In this document: positions 3,902 to 18,261 of the stretch, one piece after another
How the letters are laid out: each line of letters opens with the position of its first letter
Numbering within the stretch: the stretch's first letter is position 1
Source of the DNA: Candidatus Saccharimonadota bacterium
GTDB lineage: Bacteria; Patescibacteriota; Saccharimonadia; Saccharimonadales; Saccharimonadaceae
Direction of reading: 5' to 3'
Assembly (NCBI GenBank): GCA_020160975.1
Contig: JAIUPJ010000001.1
Span: forward strand, 570,001 to 602,000
DNA: 32,000 bases
Translations under genes and position numbers: made by a program
Notes under the pieces: model-generated
What the model was told of the DNA's origin: nothing
Database searches by the model: none
Seen by the model: the letters and a program-made list of their open reading frames with translations, nothing else

Positions 3902-3937
3902 TCTACTGCCATTTCGTGCTTAACTATCGTTATAACT

Positions 3938-4021
3938 TGTTCTATTGTTGTGAGCCAAGAAATATGTGTGATAAGAAGTCCAGTATCCATCCATGCTACT
4001 GGACTTCTTTTAATATATAAT
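3938..4021 (+). repeat. cassette-junction module copy E
   Basis: Box ...CTATTGTTGTGAGCCAAG ends at 3959. Perfect 12-bp hairpin AGAAGTCCAGTA...TACTGGACTTCT at 3974-4008 plus TTT. TATAAT at 4016-4021. ATG at 4028. Confidence 0.8.
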
Positions 4022-4027
4022 TTGAGC

Positions 4028-4321: not shown

Positions 4322-4326
4322 ATTCT

Positions 4327-4405
4327 GTGGCCCGTAAGTTGAGCTAAGAGAACATAGTTTAGAATGACCTAGTGAGTATTCACGCTACTGGGTATTTTGA
4401 TAACA
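4327..4405 (+). repeat. cassette-junction module copy F (diverged)
   Basis: Box GTGGCCCGTAAGTTGAGCTAAG at 4327-4348. Hairpin CCTAGT...ACTGGG at 4368-4392, whose loop GAGTATTCACGCT is related to copies A and B. Then a T-run and TGATAAC. Confidence 0.6.
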
Positions 4406-4421
4406 ACTAAATCATCTAAAC

Positions 4422-4458
4422 TAGCACTCTTGACATGAGAGTGCTAATTTTATAAAAT
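4422..4458 (+). promoter_or_regulatory. CIRCE (HrcA operator) inverted repeat overlapping a sigma70-type promoter of hsp20
   Basis: TAGCACTC (4422-4429), N9, GAGTGCTAA (4439-4447), against the consensus TTAGCACTC-N9-GAGTGCTAA. TTGACA at 4430-4435 lies inside the spacer. TAAAAT at 4453-4458 follows after 17 nt. Confidence 0.85.
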
Positions 4459-4519
4459 GAAAGTAGAAGCTTTTATGCTTCTCTGGAAACCATTAATAAA
4501 ATGATGAAAGGAGAACAGT

Positions 4520-4945
4520 ATGAGCAACCTTGTAAAGTGGGATCCGTTTGCAGAACTTTCTGCATTACAAAAACAATTCTTTGGTGATGACTGGATGTCA
4601 CCCTTAAAAGGCGTTAACATTCCGACGACTGACGTCTTTACTAAAGATAATAACCTTGTAGTTGAGGCGCATCTGCCTAACTTTGAGCAGAAAGATGTCA
4701 ATATCGAAGTGGAGAACGGCGCACTGGTGATTAGCGCTGAACGCCACGAAAAAGAGGAAGATAAAGGCAAGCAATACGTTGTGCGCGAGAGTTCAAGCAG
4801 CTTTTATCGCCGCATTGCGCTACCTAAGCGTGCCGATGCCGACAAGGTCGAGGCGCACTTGGATGATGGAGTACTAAAAGTTAGCATTCCGCTCACACCA
4901 CTGCCTGAACCAAAGAAAATTGCTATCTCGTCGAAGAAGAAATAG
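4520..4945 (+). CDS. Hsp20/alpha-crystallin family small heat-shock protein
   Basis: 141 aa with SD AAAGGAGAA upstream. The alpha-crystallin domain pattern is ...PTTDVFTKDNNLVVEAHLPNFEQKDVNIEVENGALVISAER...SFYRRIALPKRADADKVEAHLDDGVLKVSIP. Confidence 0.9.
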   Translation: MSNLVKWDPFAELSALQKQFFGDDWMSPLKGVNIPTTDVFTKDNNLVVEAHLPNFEQKDVNIEVENGALVISAERHEKEEDKGKQYVVRESSSSFYRRIALPKRADADKVEAHLDDGVLKVSIPLTPLPEPKKIAISSKKK

Positions 4946-4964
4946 CAGTCGCGCGTTCTAACCT

Positions 4965-4991
4965 AAAAGGAGGCCTTAAGGCCTCCTTTTA
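4965..4991 (+). terminator. intrinsic terminator downstream of hsp20
   Basis: AAAAGGAGGCC TTAA GGCCTCCTTTT is a perfect GC-rich stem with a 4-nt loop and a T tail. It is symmetric and therefore potentially bidirectional. Confidence 0.8.
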
Positions 4992-5116
4992 GTTATAAAA
5001 CCTGATTCAAGATCTGGAATTTGTTAGTTAAACTCCTTTAAAAGGAGACACGCACTAAAACATGCGTTTCGTCTCTCATTTGTCTCATCTCATTCCCCCA
5101 CACCTGTAATTGTTTC

Positions 5117-5252
5117 ATGACCTGTATGGTGAGCCAAATAAGTTTAAAATTAACACCCGGTGATTCGGTTCTGATTTTTATTGCCCCGTTATAGGTGTAG
5201 CTACTATAATCTGAATATCGTTTACGTGAGAGGCTTAATTTATTGCTATACT
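5117..5252 (+). repeat. cassette-junction module copy G (expanded/degenerate)
   Basis: Box ATGACCTGTATGGTGAGCCAAA at 5117-5138. Only a weak hairpin plus T-run around 5153-5179. An extra -10-like CTATAAT lies near 5210. TGCTATACT with the -10 at 5247-5252. ATG at 5259. Confidence 0.6.
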
Positions 5253-5258
5253 GCAGGT

Positions 5259-5786
5259 ATGAGACTCGCGGTGCTTATAAGAGGTGTTACTCCGACAGGC
5301 AAAAATAAGGTGCCAATGGCGCAGCTACGTGAGCTATTAGAACTTTCGCCGGATTTTTCGAGTGTTCAGACTTATATCCAGAGCGGAAACGTTATCTTGG
5401 AAACAGATTTATCTCTACGGGAGACAGAGTAATTAATCCATAAAATAATCTTGGATAATTTTGGAAGCGATTTAGTTATTATTGCCAAAAATCACGAACA
5501 ATTACAAAGAAGCTTCAAAAATTACTCCATCAAAAATATACCAACAGAGCGCCAATATTATACATTTTTAAAAGAAGCACCAACAAGAGACGGTATAAAA
5601 AAATTGGCCGAACGGGACTTTGGAAATGACAAGTACCAAATTATCGGAGACATGGTTTATGTCGCATTTGCTACTAAAGCATCGGACTCACGACTTACTA
5701 ATAATGTTATTGAGCAGAAGTTAGGCGTAAGCGCAACGACAAGAAATTACAATACCATGAAAAAGTTAGTCGAATTAACTATTTAG
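5259..5786 (+). pseudogene. DUF1697 family gene interrupted by one in-frame TAA (5430-5432)
   Basis: The two ORF-track pieces (5181..5432 and 5451..5786) are in the same frame. The read-through translation MRLAVLIRGVTPTGKNKVPMAQLRELL...SGNVILETDLSLRETE*LIHKIILDNFGSDLVIIAK... aligns colinearly with the intact paralog at 8602-9132. The probable start is the ATG at 5259, 6 nt after TATACT. Confidence 0.75.
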
Positions 5787-5800
5787 AGTCTTTCTTAATT

Positions 5801-6090
5801 ATGGTGTGCGGCAGTCATGAAAATCGTCAGACCTTGGGGTTGACCTTATTCCTCCAGAAGGGTTTCCGCATCACTGAGACGACGAAGGATCACTACAAGC
5901 AGGGTATCGACGAGCGTATGCTGGCGACCGAGCCGTGGCGAGAGATCGTCTCCCAGATCAACAACCAGAATGAGGCCGTGCAGCTCCTGCAAGGGATCTA
6001 ACCCATATCCAAGGAGGATCTCGGCGTCAACGTCATCGAAGTGGAGAAGCAGGAGGACAGTGTCGGGTTCGTAGACCCGAGGAAGTAATT
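5801..6090 (+). other. GC-rich coding remnant of unknown origin (two frames, no intact gene)
   Basis: Hand count gives about 54% G+C over 5801-6100, against about 35-43% in sampled neighbouring lines. A 66-codon ORF (5801-6001) is followed by a protein-like stretch in another frame (PISKEDLGVNVIEVEKQEDSVGFVDPRK*). There is no SD or promoter, and I recognise no family. Confidence 0.4.
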
Positions 6091-6182
6091 TCCTAAATCA
6101 CACGCATGACTCGGGCCAGTCTCACTGATACCTATTTAACGTATCGAACAACTGGCCTGATTTCTTTGGGAATAAATATTTC

Positions 6183-6250
6183 AAGACCGCCATGCAGAGC
6201 CAGACTGAAGCACTATGATGAAACTCATGGTGTTTTTGTTTTGCTATAAT
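6183..6250 (+). repeat. cassette-junction module copy H
   Basis: Box AAGACCGCCATGCAGAGCCAGA at 6183-6204. Hairpin CACTATGA...TCATGGTG at 6211-6232 plus T-run, closely related to copy D. TGCTATAAT with the -10 at 6245-6250. Confidence 0.7.
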
Positions 6251-6257
6251 CAAACCT

Positions 6258-6588
6258 TTGGAACTTGCCTATTGGGTTTGTGTAGCAGTCACGTTGATGA
6301 GCGCGGTGATGAGCTTTGGCTTTTCGCTAATTGCGGTGAGGTCGGCCAAGAGCGACGCCTTGGTCACCGCACTGTAGGCAGCTTCACGAAGTGGCGCTTG
6401 TTGTCGCGGCTGTTGTGCCTATTTTCTACCATTCGGTCGCGTGGCTGGCGTCAATTTCACTCAGTATGATCATTATCCAGGTCATCGATACATTCATCGG
6501 AATGAAGACAAAAGACGGAGTAAAGACGTACGGACCTGCACTGACGGCAGCGCTCAATGTGGCGGTACTTATTTGCTTGGCGAATTAA
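6258..6588 (+). pseudogene. small membrane protein gene, apparently frameshifted (DUF4267-like is a weak guess)
   Basis: TTG at 6258, 7 nt after TATAAT, opens a hydrophobic 39-codon frame (LELAYWVCVAVTLMSAVMSFGFSLIAV...) that ends at TAG 6375-6377. The hydrophobic C-terminal part (ORF 6391..6588, ...IIIQVIDTFIGMKTKDGVKTYGPALTAALNVAVLICLAN) is in the +1 frame, which is open from 6340. Confidence 0.4.
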
Positions 6589-7184
6589 TTCAGTTTCGCG
6601 GCTCGAGCGATCGTCGTGAGAGCGCTTAAGGCACTACTTTCGTCAAATGTTGTCGCATCCTTTGGCTGGCTGATGACAAATAGGTAAACCTTTGTATCTT
6701 TGACGGCCGTAATTGTATATTCCATAGTGCCGGTTAGGGTGTCGCCTGAGGTGAATTTCGCGCGGTCGCCGACTCCACTGACATCACTACCAGAAGTAGC
6801 AGTAATATCGGCTACGTTATCAAATGATTCTTGGGAATAATCGGCTAGGTCGGTGTAGAAACTATTTGATTGACTGCCGCCTTCGCTAAATGGATAGACG
6901 CAGGTCTGACCCTTGTCGCCATCGCCAAGACTTGTCACGCCAGTGTTGTTTGGCCCGCTAAGTGTGTCAGCTGCAGCCCCGAGAGCAGACTTGATCGTCG
7001 TCATGTCGACGACTTTGCAGAGACCGAGATCTTCTTCATCTTTTTGTTCGATTGTTTTGCTGTTGGTAGTAGCCGTGGTTTGTTTGTCAGATGATTTATC
7101 TTTGTTCATGCCCGTAAAAAGCAGCACTCCAGCGACTACAAATACTACGACACCTATGATAGTGATAGTTACTTTTTTATCCAT
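6585..7184 (-). CDS. N-terminally anchored secreted/surface protein, unknown function
   Basis: 199 aa. The N-terminal TM helix is ITIIGVVVFVVAGVLLFTG, followed by a low-complexity S/T/K linker and a globular domain with two Cys. SD GAGGAGG lies upstream. Confidence 0.7.
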   Translation of the reverse strand: MDKKVTITIIGVVVFVVAGVLLFTGMNKDKSSDKQTTATTNSKTIEQKDEEDLGLCKVVDMTTIKSALGAAADTLSGPNNTGVTSLGDGDKGQTCVYPFSEGGSQSNSFYTDLADYSQESFDNVADITATSGSDVSGVGDRAKFTSGDTLTGTMEYTITAVKDTKVYLFVISQPKDATTFDESSALSALTTIARAAKLN

Positions 7185-7253
7185 GACAACCTCCTCAAAT
7201 TGATGATTCGATTATAGTCTCATGCTACACTAAGTGCAATATAAGGAGGTTTT

Positions 7254-7790
7254 GTGGAAAATCATTCGAATGTCTCTAGAACTAACAAATCGATATCGAA
7301 ACAGACAGTGGCGCTAGTGATCGTAGCATTACTGGGCTTGGTCGGATCAGGTGTGTTTGGTTATCTTTGGTTCACACAGAAAAGTCAGGTCAATGAACAG
7401 CACAAACGCGTAGCGAGTGCCGACTCAGAAGTGGCGTCTCTGAAAAAACAACTTCAGGACACTCAAGCAAAGGATAGTGAAAAACCCGAGACCATTACCG
7501 ACACTGCGGCTGCCTCGGCGGTTACTTCAAGCGAGAATGACAGTGTCACCGCGATGGTTCAAGCGTATGCGCATTTGCCAAAGGGCGCTGAAACTTCCAA
7601 GCTGGATATAAAAGTGACAAAACAAGAGATTCCGTTTGCTCGTGCGACAGTCATGACGGAAGATGGTGGATATGCCTGCGTACTGAAAAAATCTGATACC
7701 CTATGGGTTGTTTTGTACTGTGGTCAGGACACGCCGCTCCAAGACCAGCTAGATATCTGGGGTGTTCCACCTTCGATGATAACGAGTTAG
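7254..7790 (+). CDS. N-terminally anchored hypothetical protein
   Basis: 178 aa with a GTG start 5 nt after AAGGAGG. It has a TM helix (VALVIVALLGLVGSGVFGYLWF), a coiled-coil-like segment and a C-terminal domain. Confidence 0.7.
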   Translation: MENHSNVSRTNKSISKQTVALVIVALLGLVGSGVFGYLWFTQKSQVNEQHKRVASADSEVASLKKQLQDTQAKDSEKPETITDTAAASAVTSSENDSVTAMVQAYAHLPKGAETSKLDIKVTKQEIPFARATVMTEDGGYACVLKKSDTLWVVLYCGQDTPLQDQLDIWGVPPSMITS

Positions 7791-7807
7791 CCGTGATAGG
7801 GAGGCAA

Positions 7808-8533
7808 ATGACACGGGGTACAAATACGACCAAATTAAAATATTTTGGTGTACTGATGTGCTGTTTGCTTTGCATGGGCGTTTGCGGGTACGTTTACCAC
7901 GATACGATTGGTATGGGTGCGATCAGTGCAAGAACGAGCATAGAAAATCGTAGCAAACCGAAATTTGTATTTGACACGACTATATTTCCAGATTGGGCAA
8001 CCGCCGGTAATGTGTATACAAACCCTGATGATAGTACCGACGACTTTCAAGGGAACAAAGATGATTTACCAATTTCTGGCATAATCGTGAGCCAATGTAA
8101 GGCGGGAAGTAACTGTAATACGTTGATAGACAAGTGCAAGCCACAAGATAATGGCGTCAGTAAAGACTGTAGGCAGCTAGCGGAGTACACGACAGACAGC
8201 CATTGTTTTGTATCACTTTTTTATAACGAGAGAAAAGTTGACCCCGAACAAGAAGTTGCGAGGTATATTGCGCATAACGAGAGTTTTGGTAGCATGACTA
8301 TTACAGAGGCTGGAGTAAGAAACTTGACGATGGATACACCAGATGGTATGAAGGAATACAGACTTCATTATTATGACTACGAAAGCAAGCTGGGCAGCAC
8401 AATAAAACGCGGCAATGCGATAGGCTACGTTACGCTTACAAACGGGCATGTAGACGTACGAAGCGTTTGCGACCAAGCAAGCCAACTAGGGGAAACAGTT
8501 CCAATACTGTCTCGTATTCAGTTAACACCGTAA
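7808..8533 (+). CDS. N-terminally anchored Cys-rich hypothetical protein
   Basis: The ORF track starts at 7703, overlapping the upstream gene. I prefer the ATG at 7808 (MTRGTNTTKLKYFGVLMCCLLCMGVCG...), which is preceded by GGGAGG. Confidence 0.65.
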   Translation: MTRGTNTTKLKYFGVLMCCLLCMGVCGYVYHDTIGMGAISARTSIENRSKPKFVFDTTIFPDWATAGNVYTNPDDSTDDFQGNKDDLPISGIIVSQCKAGSNCNTLIDKCKPQDNGVSKDCRQLAEYTTDSHCFVSLFYNERKVDPEQEVARYIAHNESFGSMTITEAGVRNLTMDTPDGMKEYRLHYYDYESKLGSTIKRGNAIGYVTLTNGHVDVRSVCDQASQLGETVPILSRIQLTP

Positions 8534-8601
8534 CGAAAAGCATGGACTTTACCTCTTTAGCTTGGCGAATAGGCTGATGGTTGACTGATACAATGGTAGG
8601 T

Positions 8602-9132
8602 ATGAGATATGTAGTATTGCTTCGCGGCATAAATGTTGGAGGAAATAATACCGTTAGTATGAGCGAGCTAAAGCGAATACTTTCGGAGGCGGGTTTCGAT
8701 GAGGTCGTAAGCTATATTAATTCTGGAAATATACTGCTGACTAGTGATCTCCCAGCTGAGGTTGTCAATGCACGGGTCGAAGAAACTATCAAAAGTAGCT
8801 TTGAACTAGACATTCCGGCTATCACGATAGCAAAGTCTGATTTCTTGCAAATTGCCGAGCAGTTACCAGCTAATTGGAAAAATGACAACGAAATGAGATG
8901 TGATTGTCTATTTCTATGGTCGGATGTCGACGCGCCAGAGGTGGTTGATACGTTGACGATAAGACCCGATATTGATCGTGTAAAATATGTTCCCGGCGCC
9001 CTATTTTGGTCAATTGACAGAAAAAATGTAACTCGAAGCGGTCTCGCAAAGATTATCGGTACGCCTACGTATAAACGAGCAACCATCCGTAATTGCAATA
9101 CAGTGCGAAAACTAGCCGCTCTGCTGGGATAG
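8602..9132 (+). CDS. DUF1697 domain-containing protein (intact paralog)
   Basis: MRYVVLLRGINVGGNNTVSMSELKRILSEAGFDEVVSYINSGNILL... is the canonical DUF1697 N-terminus. The ATG at 8602 lies 7 nt after TGATACAAT. The ORF track's TTG at 8581 is less likely. Confidence 0.85.
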   Translation: MRYVVLLRGINVGGNNTVSMSELKRILSEAGFDEVVSYINSGNILLTSDLPAEVVNARVEETIKSSFELDIPAITIAKSDFLQIAEQLPANWKNDNEMRCDCLFLWSDVDAPEVVDTLTIRPDIDRVKYVPGALFWSIDRKNVTRSGLAKIIGTPTYKRATIRNCNTVRKLAALLG

Positions 9133-9235
9133 CCTATTTCTCCCTGATCATCGTATAGCGCAAAGCTGGAACTCTCTGACAGTTTTTGTGATGAGGTATA
9201 ATAGATGAAGTACATGTGTGCAGAAGGGAGTAGTC

Positions 9236-9892
9236 ATGAATGTAAACAATGACTTACAAGATCCGAGAAAGCAACATAAAAAGGGTAAAATTCCTAGGCA
9301 GACGCAGGAGGAGCCCGGTCTTGAAACACAACTAACGCCTCGAGCAGATCATGGTGAGGGCGAGTACCGCGCGAGCAACCGTCTTGTAGGCAGAAAAGCG
9401 CTCATAACAGGAGGTGATAGTGGCATTGGTCGAGCCGTAGCAATCGCGTATGCACTCGAAGGAGCAGATGTGGTGATAGCGTATCTACCCAAAGAACAAT
9501 CGGATGCCGATGCTGTCATAAAGGAAATTAGAGCAGCTGGGAGGAAGGTCGTTGCGATTCCAGGAGATCTTACTGAAGAAAAGTATGTTAGGGATTTGGT
9601 GAAACAAGCGGCAAAAGGGCTAGGTGGTTTGGACATCGTGGTAAATAACGCTGGCAAACAGATATATAACGACGACTTGTCAACGATGCCAACGAGTCAG
9701 CTGGTGGATACCTTTACGGTTAATGTATTTGCCATGTTCTGGATTGTTCAAGAGGCGCTGCGTTATCTGAAGGCTGGCTCGACTATTATCAATACCACCT
9801 CTATACAAGCGACCCAGCCTTCGCCTGGTTTGTTGGATTACGCTGCAACCAAGGGGGCAATTACCAATTTTACGAAAGGGCTTGCTCGATGA
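9236..9892 (+). CDS. SDR family oxidoreductase (YhdF/general-stress-protein-39-like), C-terminally truncated, probable pseudogene
   Basis: It has TGGDSGIGRA (NAD-binding), NNAG and YAATK (catalytic YxxxK). The ORF ends at ...TKGLAR*, where family members continue for about 60-70 more residues (the ...GIRVN.VAPGPIWTPL... region). ATG at 9236 follows GGGAG. Confidence 0.75.
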   Translation: MNVNNDLQDPRKQHKKGKIPRQTQEEPGLETQLTPRADHGEGEYRASNRLVGRKALITGGDSGIGRAVAIAYALEGADVVIAYLPKEQSDADAVIKEIRAAGRKVVAIPGDLTEEKYVRDLVKQAAKGLGGLDIVVNNAGKQIYNDDLSTMPTSQLVDTFTVNVFAMFWIVQEALRYLKAGSTIINTTSIQATQPSPGLLDYAATKGAITNFTKGLAR

Positions 9893-10065
9893 CTGAGGTC
9901 AACACGACATCTGAACTTGCCAGGATAATGTGATTTTCTGGGTTGAGCTCAAAGCTAGTAGGAGGAGTCTCGAAAACGTGAGTTGACATCAATAACGGGA
10001 TAGCCAACACTGCAATTGCAGAGACGGACTGGGTGTTAGGCGAAGTAATGGTTGGCTTAAACATA

Positions 10066-10476
10066 TTACAGTACGAGATCTTCCGGCGCATCCTTGATTT
10101 CAAGATATTTGGTGTGGATGACTTTGTTATTAATCAGTAGATCGAATCGGTATTTTCCTAGCATGTCTATTGGCAAAAAGCTCGCCTCGACGTTAAGTGT
10201 TGCGCCCTCGAATTTTGTCTCGGGAACAGTAAAATCTTGCACAAGAGATTTTGTAACAACTTTTTTAGCTGGATTGGTAATCTTGAGCTCAAACTTGAGC
10301 TTGTCGTTTGGCTTTGCTCCGGGCAAGCCGACTTTTATTGCCACGAAGAGGGCTTTGACGACGGTCGGAAGGCTTAGTACGTACACTTCATCGTATACGT
10401 TAGCAAAAGTAAATCGGCCGCGCTCACCTACAATCACATTTTCACAGAACAAAAAATAGTCAACAACTGGGTTCAT
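10066..10476 (-). CDS. hypothetical protein, predicted all-beta (DUF6941-like is a weak guess)
   Basis: 136-aa ORF. TAGAAT plus 6 nt precedes the ATG on the minus strand. I have no confident family assignment. Confidence 0.6.
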   Translation of the reverse strand: MNPVVDYFLFCENVIVGERGRFTFANVYDEVYVLSLPTVVKALFVAIKVGLPGAKPNDKLKFELKITNPAKKVVTKSLVQDFTVPETKFEGATLNVEASFLPIDMLGKYRFDLLINNKVIHTKYLEIKDAPEDLVL

Positions 10477-10631
10477 ACTACAATTCTATTCTACTATTGG
10501 TCATTTGCATACTATAGGTATATTGTACCATCATGAGGTGGATTTGACTAGAGGGCAAACGGACTGTAATGGAAGAAACGACAGGTAATCTCGTACTGCA
10601 GTTAGCTGTGTGACAGACAGGGGGAGTAGTT

Positions 10632-11054
10632 CTATCGTTGCTCGAATTCTACCGTCCACTCAATTCCGTACTTGTCGCGGAACATGCTAAAGTGCGTGCC
10701 CCACGGACTGTCGCTCATGGGCATTTCCACTTCACCGCCTGCGCTGAGGCCAGCAAAGATACGATCGGCTTCTTCGCGGCTATCGACGCTGACGGCGATC
10801 TTCGATCGATTTTCACTCTCACTCACCGGCCCCATACTCTTGGGAACATCATTGGCGATCAACATAGTTCCGCCAATCGGTAGTGTGATGCGCAGTATAC
10901 TATCGGCCTCTTCTTCTGGCACGATGAATTCGGGACTTTCTAGATCTTTAAATCGTACGATTGTACCGAACTCACCACCAAAAACGGATTTGTAAAAGGT
11001 AAATGCTTCTTCGGCATTGCCATTGAAGTTGATGTAGGGATTGATTGTGGCCAT
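10632..11054 (-). CDS. VOC family protein, PhnB-like
   Basis: 140 aa with SD AAGGAGG upstream. The N-terminus INPYINFNGNAEEAFTFYKSVFGGEF is typical of PhnB/3-demethylubiquinone-methyltransferase-domain VOC proteins. Confidence 0.85.
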   Translation of the reverse strand: MATINPYINFNGNAEEAFTFYKSVFGGEFGTIVRFKDLESPEFIVPEEEADSILRITLPIGGTMLIANDVPKSMGPVSESENRSKIAVSVDSREEADRIFAGLSAGGEVEMPMSDSPWGTHFSMFRDKYGIEWTVEFEQR

Positions 11055-11229
11055 GATGCTGTCCTCCTTGATGGGTGCTATGTGTCCTTATCTTAGCAAA
11101 CATGCAGCACCGGGAGGAGCGGAGTACCATGCGTACAAGACTACTAGTGGTTCGGCACTACGGTCACCTAAAAGGTGTGGCCATAGTATTAACGGTTAAG
11201 CACCTATCGTGTAATAGGTAGTAGACTTA

Positions 11230-12528
11230 CTACAAATCTTGGGTGAGCGGCACAGGAATGATGTCTTTTATGGGCTTACCGGTCAAGATGCTAGTTGTTC
11301 GGTCGAGCCCAATCCCGATGCCGTACATGGGCGGAAGGCCCATCTCACATGCCTTGATAAGTCGTTCGTCGTTTGCAAAGGCGTCATCGGCTGACTCGCC
11401 AGACTGTCGCGCCAGTTTGTGTTTGAGCGCTGCTGGGTCAACCTCTTCTTGGTACGCCTTTGCGACTTCGGCTCCATTTATAATGACTTGAAATGCATCA
11501 GCGAGCCGAGGGTCGGTGCGCAATGTCGCGGCAAGGGGCATCTGGTCGACAAGGTACCCTGTTACGACGGTGGGTGATGTAATCTCTGGGCGAACGTATT
11601 TCTTCACCAATGAGTCCATGATGCCGCTCTTTCCTTTTGACGCAGCATCATCATCAAGGCCGAGCAATGTTGCGTAAGCTCGTAGCCCCTCGGTATCATC
11701 GTTTTCGAAAAAGGACAAAAGCTTAGCAAAGTCGATGTTTTGCTCAGCGAATAGCTCATCAAGTGATTTTTGTGGTAGACCATCAAATGAGACATCGGAT
11801 CCGGTCGCCTCGCTTACCTTTGAGAGCATAGATTCGGTCAGTGCGATTGCCTCATCGCCATCTTGGTAGGCGGTATATGTTTCGAGATTAGTAAACTCAG
11901 GATGATGACTTGGGCCTGTTCCTTCATTACGAAAGTTCCGACCAATTTCATAGACTCTCTCAATTCCAGATAGGGCCATAACTAATTTCAGATCAACCTC
12001 GGGGGCGATACGCAAGTGACGCTCTCGGCCGTCAAAATTTGTCATGGCTGAGAACGTTCTCGCTGCTGCTCCAGAGGGCCTTTCTTGGAGAATACTGGTG
12101 TCAACATGGAGGTAGCCTTTATTGTTGAGAAGTTCTCGAAGTGAGGACTGCATGTCGTGCCGAAGCCGCAAGATCCGGATATATTCAGATTGTGAGTGAT
12201 GTCGTTCGCTCGTGTCGGCACCAGGCCATCGGGGCCGTTGAGATTCTGCCACGATTTCCGGAACTTGATGGGCAAATAAGGAAATCTGGCCTAATCCTCG
12301 ACGACGGCTTAAGTCTGTTTCACCTAATTCACCCTGCGCACGGACAATGTCCCCAAGATGAGGAAGTGCAGTTTCGAGAGGTACGTCTGTCATAACTATC
12401 TGCGTAGGCGCCTCTCCTGGCAGACCAACATCAAGAAATGTAGCACGTTTGCTGACGCGCACCGCTTGGACTTGTCCGTGCACCTCATCTAATCTTTGCA
12501 CCTCATCTAATCTTTCATTAGGACTCAT
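11230..12528 (-). CDS. class IIb aminoacyl-tRNA synthetase, lysyl-tRNA synthetase-like (short, divergent)
   Basis: 432 aa. It has an OB-like N-terminus (VHGQVQAVRVSKRATFLDV), motif 2 (YEIGRNFRNEGTGPSHHPEFTNLETY) and motif 3 (GIGIGLDRTTSILTG). It has its own TGATATAAT plus 6 nt plus ATG in the 27-nt gap to the upstream gene. Confidence 0.85.
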   Translation of the reverse strand: MSPNERLDEVQRLDEVHGQVQAVRVSKRATFLDVGLPGEAPTQIVMTDVPLETALPHLGDIVRAQGELGETDLSRRRGLGQISLFAHQVPEIVAESQRPRWPGADTSERHHSQSEYIRILRLRHDMQSSLRELLNNKGYLHVDTSILQERPSGAAARTFSAMTNFDGRERHLRIAPEVDLKLVMALSGIERVYEIGRNFRNEGTGPSHHPEFTNLETYTAYQDGDEAIALTESMLSKVSEATGSDVSFDGLPQKSLDELFAEQNIDFAKLLSFFENDDTEGLRAYATLLGLDDDAASKGKSGIMDSLVKKYVRPEITSPTVVTGYLVDQMPLAATLRTDPRLADAFQVIINGAEVAKAYQEEVDPAALKHKLARQSGESADDAFANDERLIKACEMGLPPMYGIGIGLDRTTSILTGKPIKDIIPVPLTQDL

Positions 12529-12555
12529 AAATAGATTATATCATACTAAAAGATT

Positions 12556-13398
12556 TTAGTCAACTAAGGAGTCAATAACGGCTAACGTATCTCCGACCGG
12601 CCCGTATTCGGCATGAGGGAGGTGAGTAGTGGTAGTCTTGAAGCCATGCAATGTGCCGGCACTGTAGTCAGCGCCGGGAAGCTCTACTTTGAGCATATCG
12701 ACATGCCTGTCGAGCCCATCAAACAGAGGATCCAAAAATGTAGGCGAGTATGTGATCGGGACAATGTCCATGTCTTCTGGATCAACTGGAGCAATGAGCG
12801 TGAAGCGAGGATTAGTTGATAAATTGAAAAAGTAGCGCCAGATTTTTCTTCTACGTCCTTCGTCATCGGTCCGCATACCTTCGAAAGAGTCAAGATGGAT
12901 GCCGTTCGCAGTTGTTACGGGATGTTTCTTCGCAGAAATCTTGTCATGGTTAAAGGGAGGAGGAGCAATTCTGCGACCATCCGCGACCAAAAGTGTATTT
13001 AAACGGTTCAGGATAGTAGTAACAGGCCCCGTGGGTGCATCGGCTATATGGAAACCGCCATTGTTATAGTCATTTACATTATGCCCTGCTGACCATATTT
13101 CGTAGCAATCGGCACGCAGATGGTGCAGCGCGTACTCTGCAAGACGTACTTGCCTTTGGAACTGCTTGGCGTTATCGATAGGTAATACGAAAGCCTCCAC
13201 GAGCACCTCCTCCTGATTGGTGAGGACGGGGCCTGGACTGAAGGGTGTATCGAAAATACTAACTGTAAGAGGGCTAACACTAGTGTCTTCTTGATCTGTG
13301 ACAATCTGGGTTTCTGATAATCTATTTGGTGCAACATGGTTTCCCAATACACCTACTAATTTATCATGTCTTTGTTCCGCGAGTCGTTTAATTTTCAT
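12556..13398 (-). CDS. hypothetical protein; possible non-heme Fe(II)/2-oxoglutarate oxygenase-like (KdoO-like) fold
   Basis: 280 aa with strong SD AAAGGAGAG. The ATG overlaps the upstream stop (ATGA). GIHLDSFEG...RRRKIWRYFFNLSTNPRF resembles the HxD strand and following R-rich segment of the Kdo hydroxylase family, and there are later His candidates in LHGFKTTTTHLPH. This rests on motif-level resemblance only. Confidence 0.75.
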   Translation of the reverse strand: MKIKRLAEQRHDKLVGVLGNHVAPNRLSETQIVTDQEDTSVSPLTVSIFDTPFSPGPVLTNQEEVLVEAFVLPIDNAKQFQRQVRLAEYALHHLRADCYEIWSAGHNVNDYNNGGFHIADAPTGPVTTILNRLNTLLVADGRRIAPPPFNHDKISAKKHPVTTANGIHLDSFEGMRTDDEGRRRKIWRYFFNLSTNPRFTLIAPVDPEDMDIVPITYSPTFLDPLFDGLDRHVDMLKVELPGADYSAGTLHGFKTTTTHLPHAEYGPVGDTLAVIDSLVD

Positions 13399-14648
13399 GC
13401 TTCTCTCCTTTCAAATAAATGTTTAAAGTAGCTGAAATTGCCCATGTTTCCTACATGCTGCTGCACTGAAGCTGTCGCTAGCGCTTGGTCAAGTCTCCGA
13501 CGTACGGTTGGGTCGATGAGACTTTTTTGGGCGAGTTCTTTGGTCTGAGGGGTAAGTTCGACAATACCACTGACGAGTATGCTTGCATCAATTCCTGGCT
13601 CCTCTGTGCCTTGAAAGACCTCTGATATTCGGGGCAAGTATTCTTGCTGACTGAGCCCGCCTGCTGCAGCAATGCCTGAGCGCAAACACAAGCATGCGTA
13701 AGCGAGTGTAAGGTCGGGATATAGGCGACGATCTCGAAGTGCTTCGGAAAGCGCATGGGTACTCAGCTCTGTGACCACTGCTCCATCGCTTTTCGTGACA
13801 AGGTGATTACCATCAGCCTCCACGGGAATCAATCGGCCTTTGCGGTTCACGGCGTAGAAGAAATCAGTAGTATTCCTCAGAGTGAGATTGCGTGGATGGG
13901 ACACAGCATCGTGCTTTGCTTGCTTTAGTTCTGCAAGGCGCTCAGGGTCGGTAAGCTCATCGCCTAGTTCTGTTTTCTCAATAGCACTTGCCACTACATC
14001 GGCCGTTAGCTCCTCGTCATACAATATAAGCGGAGTGTCGTGAGGCCAAAGCTCTAGGTTCATTCTGCGGATTGCTTGAGAGCCAGATGCAAATGAGGTG
14101 CCAACAAATTCCTCAAGTCTCTTAATAGGGAGGAGACCACCTCCATTTATTGACGCAAGACTCACGTCAATATCGTGCAGTGTCGCAGGTGTCGAGTGTT
14201 TTAGTATATTTTGCGATGAGTTAAATACCTGGTACACTTCATTGTCCCATGTCGCAAAAGCAGGCCCTCGTTTTTCAGATGCGTGGGTAATGCAACTAAT
14301 AGTCGAGCACTGCTGAGAAATAACCACTCCTGACCCCTTATAAAGTTGTCCAATTCTCATGACAGTGTTATTCAGATAGACTTCTGGGTCAGTGAGTAGG
14401 TGGCTTCCATCTGCCATTTGTAGAATGGGGAGTCTGGGAAATGCCGTCGTAACGAGTGCCCTTTCGTCTCGGCTCGTCCTCTGGCGCATCGCATCGATGA
14501 CAATCTGGAAATAGACGTTGCTGTCATCGGCAGGGTTAATTGCTGAGATCTCTTGTGTCAGAAATTCTCCTAGCGGTTTATGCCAATTTGCTGCTAGCTT
14601 ACGGCCGGCGAACGTTTCATTAATCACTTTCTTTTCAAAGTCATTCAC
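13395..14648 (-). CDS. hypothetical protein (about 417 aa), no recognisable family
   Basis: The ORF track starts at 14747, a 103-nt overlap with the upstream gene. I prefer the GTG at 14648, which overlaps the upstream TGA (GTGA) and has AGGAA upstream. The protein has no TM segment and is soluble-looking. Confidence 0.75.
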   Translation of the reverse strand: MNDFEKKVINETFAGRKLAANWHKPLGEFLTQEISAINPADDSNVYFQIVIDAMRQRTSRDERALVTTAFPRLPILQMADGSHLLTDPEVYLNNTVMRIGQLYKGSGVVISQQCSTISCITHASEKRGPAFATWDNEVYQVFNSSQNILKHSTPATLHDIDVSLASINGGGLLPIKRLEEFVGTSFASGSQAIRRMNLELWPHDTPLILYDEELTADVVASAIEKTELGDELTDPERLAELKQAKHDAVSHPRNLTLRNTTDFFYAVNRKGRLIPVEADGNHLVTKSDGAVVTELSTHALSEALRDRRLYPDLTLAYACLCLRSGIAAAGGLSQQEYLPRISEVFQGTEEPGIDASILVSGIVELTPQTKELAQKSLIDPTVRRRLDQALATASVQQHVGNMGNFSYFKHLFERREA

Positions 14649-15583
14649 GGTGATAGTTCCTGTTGGTTGGCCCCGCCTGTATGAAGGATAAGAGCCGGCT
14701 CTCGCGACGAGTGTTTTTCTCGCGAGAGCTGTATTGCTGCCGCACAAACTTTGAGCATGTATACTGAATCAAAGAAGTATCCCTTGTCTCGCAGCTCTTT
14801 TTGAAGCAAGAGCTGCTCGGATGTGGCGACACCGTAGCCCCCTCCTAGGGCGCCTTCATAAAACTGGGGTAGGTCGGGTATGTATGTCCCATCTCCATCT
14901 GCCATATGACCAAAGAGTCTGGCTGTGGTGTCTCTGAAGAAGCTTGAGTTATTGGCCACGACAATGCCGGTTATGCGATTTGTGTGACCAAGAAGTGCAT
15001 CTTGGAAGGCGGCACCAGCAACTGTTCCTCCTGTGCCTGCTGCAATGTAGACATCATTGAATACAATACCAAGTGCTTCCTCCTGTTCAACTATCTCGCT
15101 TACGATATCTCTGCCTGCGCTGACAGTCTCGCTCGACGACAGGCCGGTAGGGGCATCATAGTAGAGGTCTGCGGCGATAGTAGCTGTGATTGTCTTGCGT
15201 TCTTCGGCAATGAGAGAGGGATCCCACTCTGGAAGGAGGTGGACTTCGGCTGCGCTAGCAAGGATTTTTGCGTAGTTTCCTTTCGGTTCAGTATCACCAT
15301 AAAGAATGAGATGGGGGGTGATTCCATACTGTGGCGCATAGAAGGCGACGCTCATGCAAGAATTTGACTGTGTTGTACCGTCGAGAATAATGTGTCGTAC
15401 GCCTGTCGCTTGGAGGCACGGTAGGAGTTTCTCTAACTTTCGTACTTTGTTGCCTGACCCAATATCATCTGCGGCGTCCTCTCTCTTGAGATAGATACCT
15501 CTGTTGCATAACAAGGAGAGGGGTGCGCAGTACTCGATCCGTGTTGGCCACGCTGTATTTAGATTAGGGTGTTTACTATTCAT
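14645..15583 (-). CDS. PLP-dependent enzyme, ACC deaminase/D-cysteine desulfhydrase family (tryptophan-synthase-beta fold)
   Basis: The motif IGSGNKVRKLEKLL matches the GGNK(T/x)RKLE PLP-lysine motif of this family, and a glycine-rich AAGTGGTVAG loop is present. The probable start is the ATG at 15583 (MNSKHPNLNTAWPTRIEY), which overlaps the upstream stop by 8 nt. The ORF track start is 15610. Confidence 0.8.
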   Translation of the reverse strand: MNSKHPNLNTAWPTRIEYCAPLSLLCNRGIYLKREDAADDIGSGNKVRKLEKLLPCLQATGVRHIILDGTTQSNSCMSVAFYAPQYGITPHLILYGDTEPKGNYAKILASAAEVHLLPEWDPSLIAEERKTITATIAADLYYDAPTGLSSSETVSAGRDIVSEIVEQEEALGIVFNDVYIAAGTGGTVAGAAFQDALLGHTNRITGIVVANNSSFFRDTTARLFGHMADGDGTYIPDLPQFYEGALGGGYGVATSEQLLLQKELRDKGYFFDSVYMLKVCAAAIQLSREKHSSREPALILHTGGANQQELSP

Positions 15584-16808
15584 GAAGATAAGCACGCTGT
15601 ATATCATCAATTGGGGTTACGCGCTCTACAAGATGCGGAAAGCATAGTTCCACGGACATCTTTTCTAGTCCCTCAAACACACAGTGGATGCCAGCATCAA
15701 GACTGCCTAGTGCATCTGACGCGGCGGTTATGTGTGTGAGTAGGGTGAGTGTGAATGTAAGCGCCATGAGAGTAGAAGGGTTGCCGCCGCCCGCGATGAA
15801 ATTCAAGAGAGCTCCATCACATAATGAATAGACATGACGCCCGTCATCAAGTGTGAATTCATCAGTGAACTGATTGAGCCTGCGTTGCTTAGCCGTCTTC
15901 TTTAAAAACAGCACGTCGTATTCTTTGTTGCCGTGGCCGATATTTGCGAGTATGATGCCATCTTTCGCATGGGCCTGAATCAATGCACCTGATATGGTGT
16001 TAATGCAGCCCGTTGCAGTGATGCAGATGTCCGAAGAGGCTAATGCGTCTGCGAGTGAGGTCGGTATGAATCCCTCAAGCTCGGCCTGCATTAGGTAGAT
16101 AATGTCTTGTTCGACTATCGAAACGCGAGCGCCTAATGATCGGAGGGCATTTGCGGCGCCCTTACCGACAGGTCCGTATCCGCAGACTGTAATGTTCTTT
16201 CCTGCTATGGTGATGCCGCACTGAGTGAGTGCATGTACGATTGATTGCTGAATACCGATATAATTATCAAACCATTGCTTTGTAAAGCTGTGGTTGATAT
16301 TGATTGCCGGCACTGCGAGTCGACTGCGTTTATGAAGTGTCTTGAGATGATTAATACCACAAGTCGTCTGCTCTGAAATAATGCGCACCCTTTCCATGAC
16401 TTCTGGCCTATTTTTTATGATATGCCTTGTGATGTCGCACCCATCATCAATAATTTGAATGTTGTTTTGTCCTGTAAGCGCATCAATAGCGTTATCCATA
16501 GCAGAGTGGTACTCCTCAGAGGACATATTTGATTTGGCGAAGATGGCAATTCCTTCTGATTTAAGAAAGCTTACGACATCATCATCAGATGCGTACTGGT
16601 TATCTGCGCACGCTGCAACCACTGCACCAAGATCACGAAGTGCCATGAGTAGTACACCAGTCTGAGGAGTCGGAGTGACACAGACAAGGAGGGACTTGCT
16701 CTGTAGTGGTGAGTCGGAGGCGTAATTTTCAACCAATTGACGTATACCAGCCATCTCTCTTGCCGCCGTTTCGATTTTCTCTTTTCCTAATGTAATATGT
16801 GAAATCAT
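15576..16808 (-). CDS. S-adenosyl-L-homocysteine hydrolase (adenosylhomocysteinase) family protein, divergent
   Basis: 410 aa with SD GGAG upstream. AHCY-like motifs are IIDDGCDI (DDGGD), EQTTCG (EETTTG), NHSFTKQWFDNYIG (ND..TKSKFDN.YG), GYGPVGKGAA (NAD-binding) and IGHGNKEYD (GHFD.EI). Confidence 0.8.
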   Translation of the reverse strand: MISHITLGKEKIETAAREMAGIRQLVENYASDSPLQSKSLLVCVTPTPQTGVLLMALRDLGAVVAACADNQYASDDDVVSFLKSEGIAIFAKSNMSSEEYHSAMDNAIDALTGQNNIQIIDDGCDITRHIIKNRPEVMERVRIISEQTTCGINHLKTLHKRSRLAVPAININHSFTKQWFDNYIGIQQSIVHALTQCGITIAGKNITVCGYGPVGKGAANALRSLGARVSIVEQDIIYLMQAELEGFIPTSLADALASSDICITATGCINTISGALIQAHAKDGIILANIGHGNKEYDVLFLKKTAKQRRLNQFTDEFTLDDGRHVYSLCDGALLNFIAGGGNPSTLMALTFTLTLLTHITAASDALGSLDAGIHCVFEGLEKMSVELCFPHLVERVTPIDDIQRAYLHE

Positions 16809-16963
16809 AACTGCTCCATAAATGATTTTGTAATTATATACTAATTAGATATATAAAGCAAGAGTAACGCAATATTTTTTAGATGAGCTAGGGATAATGA
16901 GATTTTGTGCTCCTGTTTTCTCATGAATAAGAGCGTAAGAGAGGTCGATCTTTCTGCTACAAT

Positions 16964-17179
16964 ATGACTATGCAGAAAATCGCTACACGTGTATTTATCT
17001 ATGCCTCAATCGCCTTTGGTATCGTCGGAATGCTGATCGTGCTGACATCTGGCGGGCCCGACACGCGCGATACGCCACTCACGGAGACTTTGATTCGAAT
17101 CCTCTTCGCGATCGTGTTTGTCATTTTGCCGTCATTTGCACTGAGCGTGGCTGGCAAATATCTCGGCGGCAAGTTCTAA
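16964..17179 (+). CDS. small membrane protein (2 TM)
   Basis: 71-aa ORF. TGCTACAAT ends at 16963, so the second ATG at 16970 (6 nt after the -10) is the more likely leaderless start. Two hydrophobic helices. Confidence 0.55.
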   Translation: MTMQKIATRVFIYASIAFGIVGMLIVLTSGGPDTRDTPLTETLIRILFAIVFVILPSFALSVAGKYLGGKF

Positions 17180-18261
17180 GCTTTGTCCCACCAGTTTTCG
17201 GTAGGGAGTGAGTCCGCTTTGAATTTCACGGTCTCGCCAATTTTTGGCGTGATGATCGTGAGCTGCGATTTTTTGCTAGCAGCGAGAACGCGCTCAATCG
17301 GATCAGTCCACGCGTGAAATGCAAGCGCAAATCCACCCCAATGCATAGGAACCATGCGCGTACTGCGCAAATCGAGGCAAGCCTGTGCTGTCTCCTCTGG
17401 TGCCATATGGACAGCTGGCCATAGCGGGCCGTACTGCCCGCATTCGAGAAGTGCTAGGTCAAATGCACCATACTTGTCACCAATTTCTTTGAAGTGTGGC
17501 CCGTAGCCGCTATCGCCGCTAAAAAATAGTTTAGTATCCTTACTTTGGATCACCCATGACGCCCAGAGGGTGGCGAAGCGGTCGGTCAGTGTACGACCAG
17601 AGAAATGCCGTGACGGCGTGCAGATGAAATCGATGCCGTCAATCGACGAGGTATCCCACCAGTCGAGCTCGACGATCTTGTCATCTGTTACACCCCATTT
17701 CTCTAGGTGGGCGGCGAGACCAATCGGTACAAAGAATTTCTTTGTTTTGTGCGCCAACTGTTTGATGGAGTCGTAGTCGAGATGATCGTAGTGGTCATGC
17801 GAAATTACCACCATATCGATAGCCGGTAGCTGATCGATCGTGGCTGGCAGGGATTTGCTAAACCGCTCTGGCCCCAAGAACTGAAACGGCGAGGCGCGTC
17901 GGCTGAGCATAGGGTCGAGCAATATCGTCTTGCCATCTAGCTGCAACAAAAATGCCGAATGGCCAAACCAGGTGATGTGTGGTTGGCGAGAGGTTGCAAG
18001 GCTTTCGATATCGAGCCGTTCGGGTACGAGCGGCTGCCGAGGACGACGATTGGGGTGTGGCGCAAACTGCTTGCTGAGCATGGCGGGAATGGCAGCAAAC
18101 GATAGGCCCATAGGCGTCGGGATTTGATTGACGAATTTGCCGTTTTTGAACTGTGACGAGCGCCTCTTGACGCTAGCCGAGGCCTTGCCGCCAAATGGTC
18201 GGTACAGGTGAAAAAACAAGGAGATAGAGATAACCGCAGCGATGACAAGAAAAATATACAT
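17176..18261 (-). CDS. MBL-fold metallo-hydrolase (NAPE-PLD-like), N-terminal membrane anchor
   Basis: 361 aa. Family motifs are ITWFGHSAFLLQLDGKTILLDP and VVISHDHYDHLD (HxHxDH metal motif). Confidence 0.85.
   Translation of the reverse strand: MYIFLVIAAVISISLFFHLYRPFGGKASASVKRRSSQFKNGKFVNQIPTPMGLSFAAIPAMLSKQFAPHPNRRPRQPLVPERLDIESLATSRQPHITWFGHSAFLLQLDGKTILLDPMLSRRASPFQFLGPERFSKSLPATIDQLPAIDMVVISHDHYDHLDYDSIKQLAHKTKKFFVPIGLAAHLEKWGVTDDKIVELDWWDTSSIDGIDFICTPSRHFSGRTLTDRFATLWASWVIQSKDTKLFFSGDSGYGPHFKEIGDKYGAFDLALLECGQYGPLWPAVHMAPEETAQACLDLRSTRMVPMHWGGFALAFHAWTDPIERVLAASKKSQLTIITPKIGETVKFKADSLPTENWWDKA

Follow-up and report, generated by a model that had tools for sequence, protein, structure and literature searches.

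Five consecutive genes, numbered G1 to G5 in the order of transcription, lie on the minus strand of a 32,000-nucleotide (nt) stretch of the genome of a Candidatus Saccharimonadota bacterium (GenBank assembly GCA_020160975.1, contig JAIUPJ010000001.1, positions 570,001 to 602,000), referred to here as the window. On balance, the five genes probably form a lysyl-nucleoside biosynthetic cassette of the albomycin-warhead type that has been rewired for lysine. Its product is plausibly an inhibitor of lysyl-tRNA synthetase (LysRS), and the LysRS of the cassette would be both the lysyl donor and, probably, an insensitive enzyme. G1 resembles adenosylhomocysteinase (AHCY), the hydrolase of S-adenosylhomocysteine (SAH); G2 is a pyridoxal 5'-phosphate (PLP) enzyme; G3 is a predicted amide ligase; G4 is an accessory protein and G5 is LysRS-like (Table 1). 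The genes are tightly packed: the stop of G1 overlaps the start of G2 by 8 nt (ATGAATAG), the stops of G2 and G3 overlap the GTG start of G3 and the ATG of G4 by 4 nt each (GTGA and ATGA), and the 27-nt gap between G4 and G5 contains TGATATAAT, 6 nt before the ATG of G5. These open reading frames (ORFs), overlaps, gap and promoter-like box had been reported in a preliminary description of this DNA and are exact to the base. The starts of all five genes are also the same in the gene calls of public assemblies, which have identical contigs.

The arrangement is far beyond chance adjacency. Nine independent loci contain a relative of G3 and enough flanking sequence to be informative (the window, L007, L008, L011, L020, L025, L010, L026 and L029), and in all nine G1, G2 and G3 are adjacent to a LysRS gene while the surrounding genes are unrelated. 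This neighbourhood check upholds the preliminary proposal of a functional unit linked to the synthetase. Relative to the window protein, G3 is 100% identical in near-identical copies of the window, 67% in L008, 43% in L011 and 39% in each of L007 (where the flanks are completely different), L020 and L025; it falls to 27% in L010 (GC 0.31), about 27% in L026 (GC 0.68) and 26% in L029 (GC 0.41). The LysRS partner is of three independent kinds. A short class II LysRS of the Saccharibacteria type is found in the window and five other loci and adjoins G1–G3 in every such module; the partner in L010 is an orthodox class II LysRS (501 aa, 711 bits on NF001756 with a cut-off of 468); and the partners in L026 and L029 are class I LysRSs, the former overlapping G1 by 20 nt. 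In L029, the homologs of G1 and G2 are fused in one 741-aa protein. Together, the non-orthologous replacement of LysRS and the G1::G2 fusion are strong evidence that the module needs lysine activation as such and that G1 and G2 work on one and the same molecule.

What the module might do with activated lysine is suggested by a contig from JGI metagenome 3300013026 (Ga0170681_1000865, GC 0.66; L030, positions 1121-12041), which has the gene content of the albomycin warhead. Its genes encode, in order, a radical S-adenosylmethionine (SAM)/SPASM protein, a second radical SAM protein, a methyltransferase, a serine hydroxymethyltransferase (SHMT)-like enzyme with fluorothreonine transaldolase as its best NCBIfam match, a deoxynucleoside kinase (dNK) homolog, a G3-like protein, a NodU-type carbamoyltransferase, a PALP protein of the D-cysteine-desulfhydrase family and a seryl-tRNA synthetase (SerRS); no siderophore nonribosomal peptide synthetase (NRPS) is visible on the contig. 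This content corresponds to abmM/J, I, H, G, F, E, D and K (PMC9032320, PMC9092360). The G3-like protein of the contig (P0165) matches the G3 profile with an E-value of 4e-53 and is 29% identical to the window G3 over 354 aa (pairwise E 2e-32), and the PALP protein at the AbmD position is 26% identical to G2 (E 2e-18). The order I-H-G-F-E-D also agrees with the alphabetical naming of the abm genes, which reportedly follows gene order.

In albomycin biosynthesis, AbmF joins serine to the 6'-amino thionucleoside through an amide; the seryl-adenylate that it uses is made by SerRS, with seryl-tRNA not excluded as the donor (PMC8323819, PMC9032320, PMC9092360). The SerRS of the cluster, AbmK, supplies the adenylate, is insensitive to the product and confers immunity, and AbmD, a PLP epimerase, acts just before AbmF to prepare the amino-acid centre (PMC8323819, PMC9032320, PMC9092360). 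With G3 homologous to the gene at the AbmF position, G2 to that at the AbmD position, and a LysRS beside them, the window therefore appears to hold the AbmD–AbmF–aminoacyl-tRNA synthetase (aaRS) core with LysRS in place of SerRS. Two of the explanations offered in the preliminary description converge here. A small biosynthetic cluster with its own aaRS fits best, with the aaRS in the role of AbmK, and it is joined by that part of a second explanation in which a nucleoside-amino acid is ligated with the help of the synthetase; the PylS-like and EpmA-like forms of that second explanation are disfavoured by the orthodox and class I LysRS partners and by the lack of a tRNA gene in all of the loci. 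The earlier statement that the gene combination matches no described pathway holds for lysine, but the AbmD/AbmF/aaRS logic itself has been described, for serine only.

G3 has no match in Pfam or NCBIfam and gives only noise in sequence and profile searches of PDB, and none of 45 members of its family has a match in Pfam, the BshC family included. The structural check proposed for this 417-aa protein in the preliminary description was more productive. Its AlphaFold2 model, built from six sequences, is confident (predicted local distance difference test, pLDDT, 89; predicted TM-score, pTM, 0.90), and Foldseek against PDB returns a single significant match, to BshC (4wbd, E 7.5e-6, probability 1.0), followed by weak matches to class I aaRSs, the NAD synthetase NadE and a cyclodipeptide synthase. 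The model thus points to a HUP-class Rossmann ligase fold like that of BshC and class I aaRSs. AbmF has been described as a hypothetical protein similar to aaRSs, with which the predicted fold of G3 agrees (PMC9092360). A profile search with G3 collects 383 representatives of an unnamed family of about 450 aa that share the motifs PxIQxAD[GH]S, QQCST, GPxF, RxxTDFF[YW] and GGxSQxEY[LV]P. Look-ups of 20 representatives of the family gave no informative names. In several distant members the cysteine of QQCST is replaced by serine, an exchange that is typical of a nucleophile position.

Distant members of the G3/AbmF family, annotated as hypothetical proteins of about 465 aa, are also encoded on more than 100 plasmids of Rhizobiaceae, for instance Rhizobium etli pRsp8C3a (L031, positions 7676-10779) and Agrobacterium tumefaciens pAt15955 (L032, positions 7145-10867). 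There they belong to a fixed trio of a SAM methyltransferase, the AbmF-like gene and a GNAT acetyltransferase, and immediately upstream of the trio lies a LuxR regulator or an acyl-homoserine lactone (AHL) synthase. The GNAT gene brings to mind the acetylation-based immunity to aminoacyl-nucleotides.

By its sequence, G1 is not an orthodox adenosylhomocysteinase and represents a new AHCY subfamily. It matches Pfam AdoHcyase and AdoHcyase_NAD, is about 35-40% similar to solved AHCYs over its full length, and scores 305.3 bits on TIGR00936, where the cut-off is 497.6, and 288.7 bits on NF004005, which narrowly exceeds the cut-off of 275; NCBI records with an identical protein are annotated as adenosylhomocysteinase. 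In human AHCY numbering, G1 keeps Asp131, Lys186, Asp190, Asn191, His301 and the GxGxxG motif for binding nicotinamide adenine dinucleotide (NAD), while, compared with solved AHCYs, His55 is replaced by Thr, Glu156 by Gln, Thr159 by Cys, Phe302 by Gly, Arg343 by Ala and His353 by Asn, and the C-terminus ends before the cofactor-locking tail. This signature is invariant in all eight module-linked relatives, whose GC ranges from 0.31 to 0.68, and G1 is always in an operon with the PLP enzyme. The earlier suspicion that the AHCY-like protein is no ordinary AhcY is thus well founded, since His55, Glu156 and His353 are replaced throughout.

In AHCY, Lys186 and the bound NAD carry out the 3'-oxidation, and His55 and its neighbours serve the elimination/hydration half-reaction. 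Because G1 keeps the residues of the former and lacks those of hydrolysis, a 3'-keto nucleoside would still be made and SAH would not be hydrolysed, which suggests a reaction other than SAH hydrolysis. One candidate is the joining of C5' of adenosine to another thiol or carbon nucleophile, for instance a PLP-stabilised carbanion provided by G2. With such a carbanion, the result would be a 5'-C-linked adenosyl amino acid that has the N-C-C-C4' topology of the albomycin warhead SB-217452 and to which G4 might add a hydroxyl. An alternative candidate is 3'-epimerisation, which in albomycin biosynthesis is the step of the radical SAM enzyme AbmJ.

G2 belongs to the ACC (1-aminocyclopropane-1-carboxylate)-deaminase/D-cysteine-desulfhydrase family. 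It matches Pfam PALP (2.7e-20), its best NCBIfam match is TIGR01275 (99 bits, below the cut-off of 289), 1j0a is the nearest of the solved structures, and the PLP-lysine motif (GNKVRKLE) is intact. G2 and the PALP protein of L030 match the same NCBIfam models (TIGR01275, CuyA and XcbE), and by analogy with AbmD, G2 may be an epimerase.

G4, like G3, has no match in Pfam or NCBIfam and gives only noise in searches of PDB. Only four close clusters were found; homologs are present in L007, L010, L014, L024 and L029 and absent from L008, L011, L020 and L025, and in L026 the opposite strand holds a partial match, so that about half of the modules contain the gene. Its AlphaFold2 model is of medium confidence (pLDDT 75) and has weak Foldseek matches to GriE, FIH, ColD, HygX, EvdMO1 and proline hydroxylases (E 0.02-0.1, probability 0.5-0.8, TM 0.3-0.37), which is about as far as the label "oxygenase-like" in the preliminary description can be followed. 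His168-x-Asp170, Arg176, His259 and His262 are invariant, and the His-x-Asp motif with a downstream His would suit a metal triad; confidence in the model is lowest at the HxD and His segments. A putative tailoring oxygenase is a reasonable guess from the model.

G5 matches Pfam tRNA-synt_2 (4e-51) and is closest to LysRS, with 232.5 bits on NF001756 (cut-off 468) and 213.5 bits on TIGR00499 (cut-off 427.6). Motif 2 (RNFRNEG..HHPEF), motif 3 (GIGLDR/GLDR), Glu278, Tyr280 and Glu428 are kept; Glu240 is changed to Asp ("VDTS"), SELND to QEEVD and Asn424 to Lys. The N-terminal domain has about 110 aa, in which Pfam tRNA_anti-codon is not detected; residues ~17-95 follow, by eye only, the OB pattern GxVxxVR..F.D...IQ...GDI..G. 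NCBI's Prokaryotic Genome Annotation Pipeline (PGAP) calls the identical protein a hypothetical protein. In a tree, G5 falls in a distinct, monophyletic Saccharibacteria-type clade of about 25 clusters, annotated in Saccharibacteria metagenome-assembled genomes (MAGs). Within it, one subclade holds all module-linked copies and has the subclade-specific Glu240-to-Asp change and QEEV loop, whereas its sister (P0030, P0035 and relatives) has housekeeping synteny with L19, RNase HII, DnaE and GatB, canonical ETS and NEL-x-DP motifs, and an equally low LysRS score of 224 bits. A 415-aa group nested in the G5 subclade is not beside the module and lacks the motif-3 arginine. Among the matches of the G5 search, no second class II LysRS of the window genome, of Saccharibacteria type or orthodox, was found; this search covers class II only and suggests, weakly, that the genome may have G5 as its sole class II LysRS.

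The preliminary description had ascribed to G5 a promoter of its own and allowed that it might simply be the housekeeping lysS next door. The promoter-like site is confirmed, but it does not make the adjacency accidental. The promoter-like site matches 11 of 12 consensus positions, has an upstream TG and is the best in a 6.4-kb scan, and its architecture is conserved in four diverged relatives (L007, L008, L011 and L020). Judging from its position, the mRNA looks leaderless. With its own predicted promoter, G5 would therefore be expressed independently of G1–G4, as expected for an essential, donor or immunity gene.

Several other loci bear on the LysRS clade. In L016 (GCA_028286395.1, JAQBRS010000003.1, a Candidatus Saccharibacteria MAG), a 976-aa ORF on the minus strand (4153-7083) fuses an aldehyde dehydrogenase to a bona fide class I LysRS (TIGR00467, 366 bits), and 3 kb away a G5-type class II LysRS-like gene on the plus strand (10001-11248) has Asn in place of the motif-3 arginine (GLDN). 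Its neighbours encode NTP_transf_2, Amidohydro_2, a PPDK_N/PEP-utilizers protein and a 380-aa protein without a family. The pair shows that proteins of the G5 subclade can coexist with another LysRS, and L016 may be another lysine-activating cluster. In front of the Saccharibacteria LysRS in housekeeping synteny, the same strand always encodes two conserved proteins of uncharacterised families, of ~263 and ~400 aa (L018, positions 5938-7963; L022, positions 5943-7961). The proteins flanking LysRS in L018, L016 and L029 were considered as relatives of G3 or G4 and dropped when BLAST showed no similarity.

A mechanism can be proposed from these parts. G5 would activate L-lysine as lysyl-adenylate, possibly also as Lys-tRNA, and G3 would move the lysyl group onto a primary amine of the acceptor to form an amide, maybe through the conserved Cys114. 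The acceptor, which may be SAH-like or a 5'-C-linked adenosyl amino acid, would be made or tailored by G1 and G2, both acting on one molecule with a nucleoside end and an alpha-amino-acid end: the bound NAD of G1 would transiently oxidise the ribose 3'-OH, and G2, taken as a counterpart of the epimerase AbmD, would carry out chemistry at the alpha carbon. In the modules that have it, G4 would hydroxylate the product. The resulting lysyl-nucleoside would resemble lysyl-AMP and could thus plausibly inhibit LysRS, and the cassette LysRS, under its own promoter, would provide the lysyl donor and probably withstand the product. Hints of such insensitivity are the subclade-specific substitutions in the active site of G5, which are absent from the sister subclade with housekeeping synteny.

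A broader version can be offered tentatively, as a possibility. In it, a portable cassette of four to five genes, present in ultra-small epibiotic Saccharibacteria and scattered over other phyla, makes a natural lysyl-adenylate mimic that targets LysRS. The AHCY fold would have been repurposed, to form a C–C or C–S bond at C5' or to epimerise at 3' via the 3'-keto intermediate, in concert with the PLP enzyme; the only LysRS of the Saccharibacteria would be both donor and resistant target; and the compound would be used against hosts or competitors. To our knowledge, no natural lysyl-adenylate mimic has been known before, and none was found in the literature searched.

Several observations weigh against a lysyl-nucleoside inhibitor. 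The link of G3 to AbmF is indirect, by way of a single metagenomic contig (L030) that is syntenic with the published abm set, and on Rhizobiaceae plasmids the distant members of the G3 family lack an adjoining aaRS, which means that the family is not always coupled to an aaRS. Genes for building a thionucleoside are absent, and the sole indication of a nucleoside is the AHCY fold of G1. The family of G2 also holds lyases (D-cysteine desulfhydrase, cysteate sulfo-lyase and ACC deaminase). Two module-linked or related homologs of G5 lack the motif-3 arginine, which is odd for an adenylate-forming donor, and a G5 that is the only class II LysRS of its genome fits a housekeeping donor as well as immunity. 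Finally, the module loci share no conserved exporter, regulator or uptake ("Trojan horse") moiety.

The same ligase chemistry could also yield a product for the cell's own use, such as a lysine-conjugated cofactor-like nucleoside, a signal, an envelope precursor or a low-molecular-weight thiol akin to bacillithiol or mycothiol, for which G1 would release the homocysteine; LysRS would be co-located only as the source of activated lysine. Genomes of ~1 Mb, like those of Saccharibacteria, usually retain genes for self-maintenance, and neither the missing exporter and uptake functions nor a sole class II LysRS would be surprising for an internal metabolite. The only significant structural neighbour of G3, BshC, is moreover the bacillithiol "cysteine ligase", and MshC shows that aaRS-type enzymes make thiol cofactors (PMC9736012). 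We nevertheless regard own use as rather doubtful. The module is rare and patchy over phyla, as is typical of accessory and not of core metabolism, G3 has no sequence similarity to BshC, and the repeated recruitment of LysRS, including class I enzymes where another LysRS may exist, is what immunity by target duplication predicts; the closest characterised relatives by context, furthermore, make a toxic aaRS inhibitor (PMC8323819). A puromycin-like product is distinctly unlikely. Here G1 would be a true adenosine 3'-dehydrogenase, G2 would add an amine, and G3 and G5 would add lysine to give 3'-lysylamino-3'-deoxyadenosine, which would mimic the 3' end of Lys-tRNA and act on the ribosome rather than on LysRS. 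Puromycin biosynthesis involves NAD-dependent 3'-oxidation, PLP-dependent amination and an aminoacyl-aminonucleoside synthetase, and lysylaminoadenosine is a fungal nucleoside. G1 would suit this route in keeping the NAD site and the residues for oxidising the 3'-OH without those for hydrolysis, and the missing NAD-locking tail might permit NAD exchange. However, the ACC-deaminase family, to which the fold-type II enzyme G2 belongs, has alpha-amino acids as substrates, and sugar aminotransferases are of a different fold type. A ribosomal target also gives no reason for the strict linkage to three kinds of LysRS, and the homolog at the AbmD position is the epimerase partner of AbmF (PMC9092360).

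Two further explanations, both raised in the preliminary description, are very improbable. If the genes were a route for disposing of SAH and homocysteine, G1 would hydrolyse SAH, G2 would degrade the homocysteine, and a housekeeping lysS with its own promoter would happen to lie next door. The annotation of G1 as adenosylhomocysteinase, the one equivalog cut-off that it passes (NF004005), the desulfhydrases in the family of G2, the promoter of G5 and the general appearance of the Saccharibacteria-type clade as the LysRS of its lineage all speak for this route. It is disfavoured by the loss of His55, Glu156 and His353 in all eight relatives, by the score of G1 far below the TIGR00936 cut-off and by the constant presence of a ligase-fold protein and a LysRS; it leaves G3 and G4 unexplained, as well as the class I and orthodox class II LysRSs in the modules of unrelated organisms and the rarity of the module. 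No better placed is a non-canonical amino acid that G5 would charge onto a tRNA, as PylS does, or onto a protein such as elongation factor P (EF-P), as EpmA does. The divergence of G5 from LysRS, with its Glu240-to-Asp change and QEEV loop, could reflect such a specificity, and the optional hydroxylase-like gene recalls EpmC. Yet neither a tRNA gene nor any Rfam family was found in the window, nor a tRNA gene in any of the module loci, and the orthodox LysRS of L010 and the class I enzymes of L026 and L029 would not share a new specificity; expansion of the code in the manner of pyrrolysine was dropped on these grounds. G5 also scores far better as a LysRS than on the EpmA model TIGR00462 (125 bits, cut-off 287) and has an OB-like N-terminal segment, seen by eye and not detected by Pfam. 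On these scores and this domain content, G5 was rejected as an EpmA. The homology of G3, lastly, indicates the formation of a small-molecule amide.

The module is rarely encountered. A word-based search found relatives of G3 in only six clusters (90% identity), a profile scan of metagenomes found five loci, and a scan of GTDB species representatives gave one partial match only, in an Elusimicrobiota MAG (L015; JBDRIG010000012.1, positions 3258-6368). That contig holds a G2–G3 pair and stops inside G3; directly upstream there is no AHCY-like gene and instead a 464-aa protein without a family, followed by a tRNA-Ser(UGA) gene in a 750-bp gap. Two of the informative loci have additional genes. 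In L029, the start of the G1::G2 fusion shares 4 nt with a gene of the histone-deacetylase family (4751-5782; Pfam E 1e-70), and the class I LysRS is followed by a 399-aa protein that belongs to no family (12299-13498); both may be extra members of the module in that lineage, possibly with a deacetylase or pro-drug logic. In L008, a 292-aa ORF directly upstream of the module (6108-6986) has a sub-threshold match to an integrase core (rve) and resembles a decayed transposase, which is a weak hint that the cassette has moved.

The genes and control elements of the window are collected in Table 1. In the G1 leader, an Rfam search of positions 16700-17300 gave no match even at E<=1, and a T-box or lysine riboswitch is therefore not indicated. 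A small ORF of 69-71 aa without a family lies on the opposite strand (16960-17175), between a gene for a metallo-beta-lactamase (MBL)-fold hydrolase and G1 in the assembly calls. Just downstream of G5, a VOC/glyoxalase (PhnB-like) gene occupies positions 10632-11054 on the minus strand; L016 has a homolog of equal size and the same family, ~3 kb downstream of its G5-type gene. As the gene is not conserved in L007 or L020, it probably reflects lineage synteny rather than membership of the module. PADLOC gave no match, for G3 and G4 included, and the idea of a defence system was dropped for that reason.

Table 1. Genes and predicted control elements of the cassette in the window (positions count from the first letter of the window).
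Feature	Position	Strand	Product	Assignment or remarks
G1	15576-16808	minus	410 aa	divergent NAD enzyme of AHCY fold; first gene of the coupled operon
G2	14645-15583	minus	312 aa from ATG	fold-type II PLP enzyme, AbmD-like
G3	13395-14648	minus	417 aa from GTG	AbmF-like, predicted lysyl transferase (amide ligase)
G4	12556-13398	minus	280 aa	accessory; possible tailoring enzyme, Fe(II)/2-oxoglutarate-oxygenase-like
G5	11230-12528	minus	432 aa	short class II LysRS-like protein, Saccharibacteria type
5' region of the G1-G4 operon	16809-16861	minus		read by eye: GGAG Shine-Dalgarno at 16814-16817, TATAAT at 16833-16838
G5 promoter-like element	12535-12563	minus		TTGACT-17-TG-n-TATAAT; -35 overlaps the G4 stop, -10 ends 6 nt before the ATG

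A literature search for a cluster of AHCY, PLP enzyme and LysRS, or for the cluster of a natural LysRS inhibitor, found nothing relevant. According to a 2021 review, AbmF homologs occur only beside SerRS genes and albomycin is the sole known member of its class (PMC8323819), and a 2022 review of aaRS duplications has no resistance-type LysRS copy among those given (PMC9437257). A LysRS-coupled cassette of the AbmD/AbmF type with an AHCY-fold enzyme, in Saccharibacteria and scattered phyla, is thus absent from the literature searched. Serine, together with enzymes that build a thioheptose, is the only setting in which the AbmD/AbmF/aaRS logic is known; lysine, LysRS and the AHCY-fold enzyme are new here. 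If the proposal is true, the cassette shows that hijacking the adenylate which a co-encoded synthetase makes is a strategy both general and modular, and it points to an undiscovered lysyl-nucleoside and possibly to a new scaffold for LysRS inhibitors. It would also be a rare case of secondary-metabolite-like biosynthesis in a Saccharibacteria genome of ~1 Mb, with a bearing on the dealings of these epibionts with hosts and competitors. The AHCY-fold subfamily, with its remodelled active site, is currently mis-annotated as adenosylhomocysteinase in MAGs, and the G3 family, with ~380 clusters that have no Pfam or NCBIfam match and genes on more than 100 Rhizobiaceae plasmids, gains a functional lead.

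Among known systems, the albomycin cluster of Streptomyces sp. ATCC 700974 is alike in having an aaRS inside the cluster, an aaRS-like ligase of ~450 aa and a neighbouring PLP enzyme of the D-cysteine-desulfhydrase family. It differs in using serine and SerRS, whereas lysine and class II or class I LysRSs are found here. The transaldolase AbmH, the kinase AbmG and the radical SAM enzymes AbmJ and AbmM are absent from the window and from all LysRS-linked loci, as are the carbamoyl- and methyltransferases and the siderophore NRPS, and in their place stands an AHCY-fold NAD enzyme. The hosts, too, are different, being Saccharibacteria and other uncultured lineages. With AhcY/SahH, G1 shares the two-domain AHCY fold and the NAD-binding motif; the invariant replacements of its subfamily, the missing tail and the operonic, in one case fused, PLP enzyme set it apart. 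BshC and MshC resemble G3 in the HUP/Rossmann ligase-type fold and in adding an amino acid to a small-molecule amine, as is predicted for G3. However, G3 has no detectable sequence similarity to BshC, its context consists of LysRS, AHCY-like and PLP genes, and the glycosyltransferase and deacetylase of the thiol pathways are not present.

Other systems likewise divert an activated amino acid or a LysRS relative from its usual role. In LysX (LysRS–MprF) and VlmL/VlmA, a copy of LysRS or SerRS is genetically linked to a transferase, which draws on the activated amino acid for purposes other than translation (PMC2922099, PMC9437257). There, the transferase has a GNAT/Fem fold, the donor is an aminoacyl-tRNA and the acceptor is a lipid or hydroxylamine, whereas the cassette has an AbmF-like HUP-fold protein and its acceptor is probably a nucleoside amino acid. 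EpmA, EpmB and EpmC also combine a LysRS relative with amino-acid-modifying enzymes and an optional hydroxylase. Unlike EpmA, however, G5 has an N-terminal segment, no aminomutase accompanies it, and in other loci of the module a class I LysRS takes its place.

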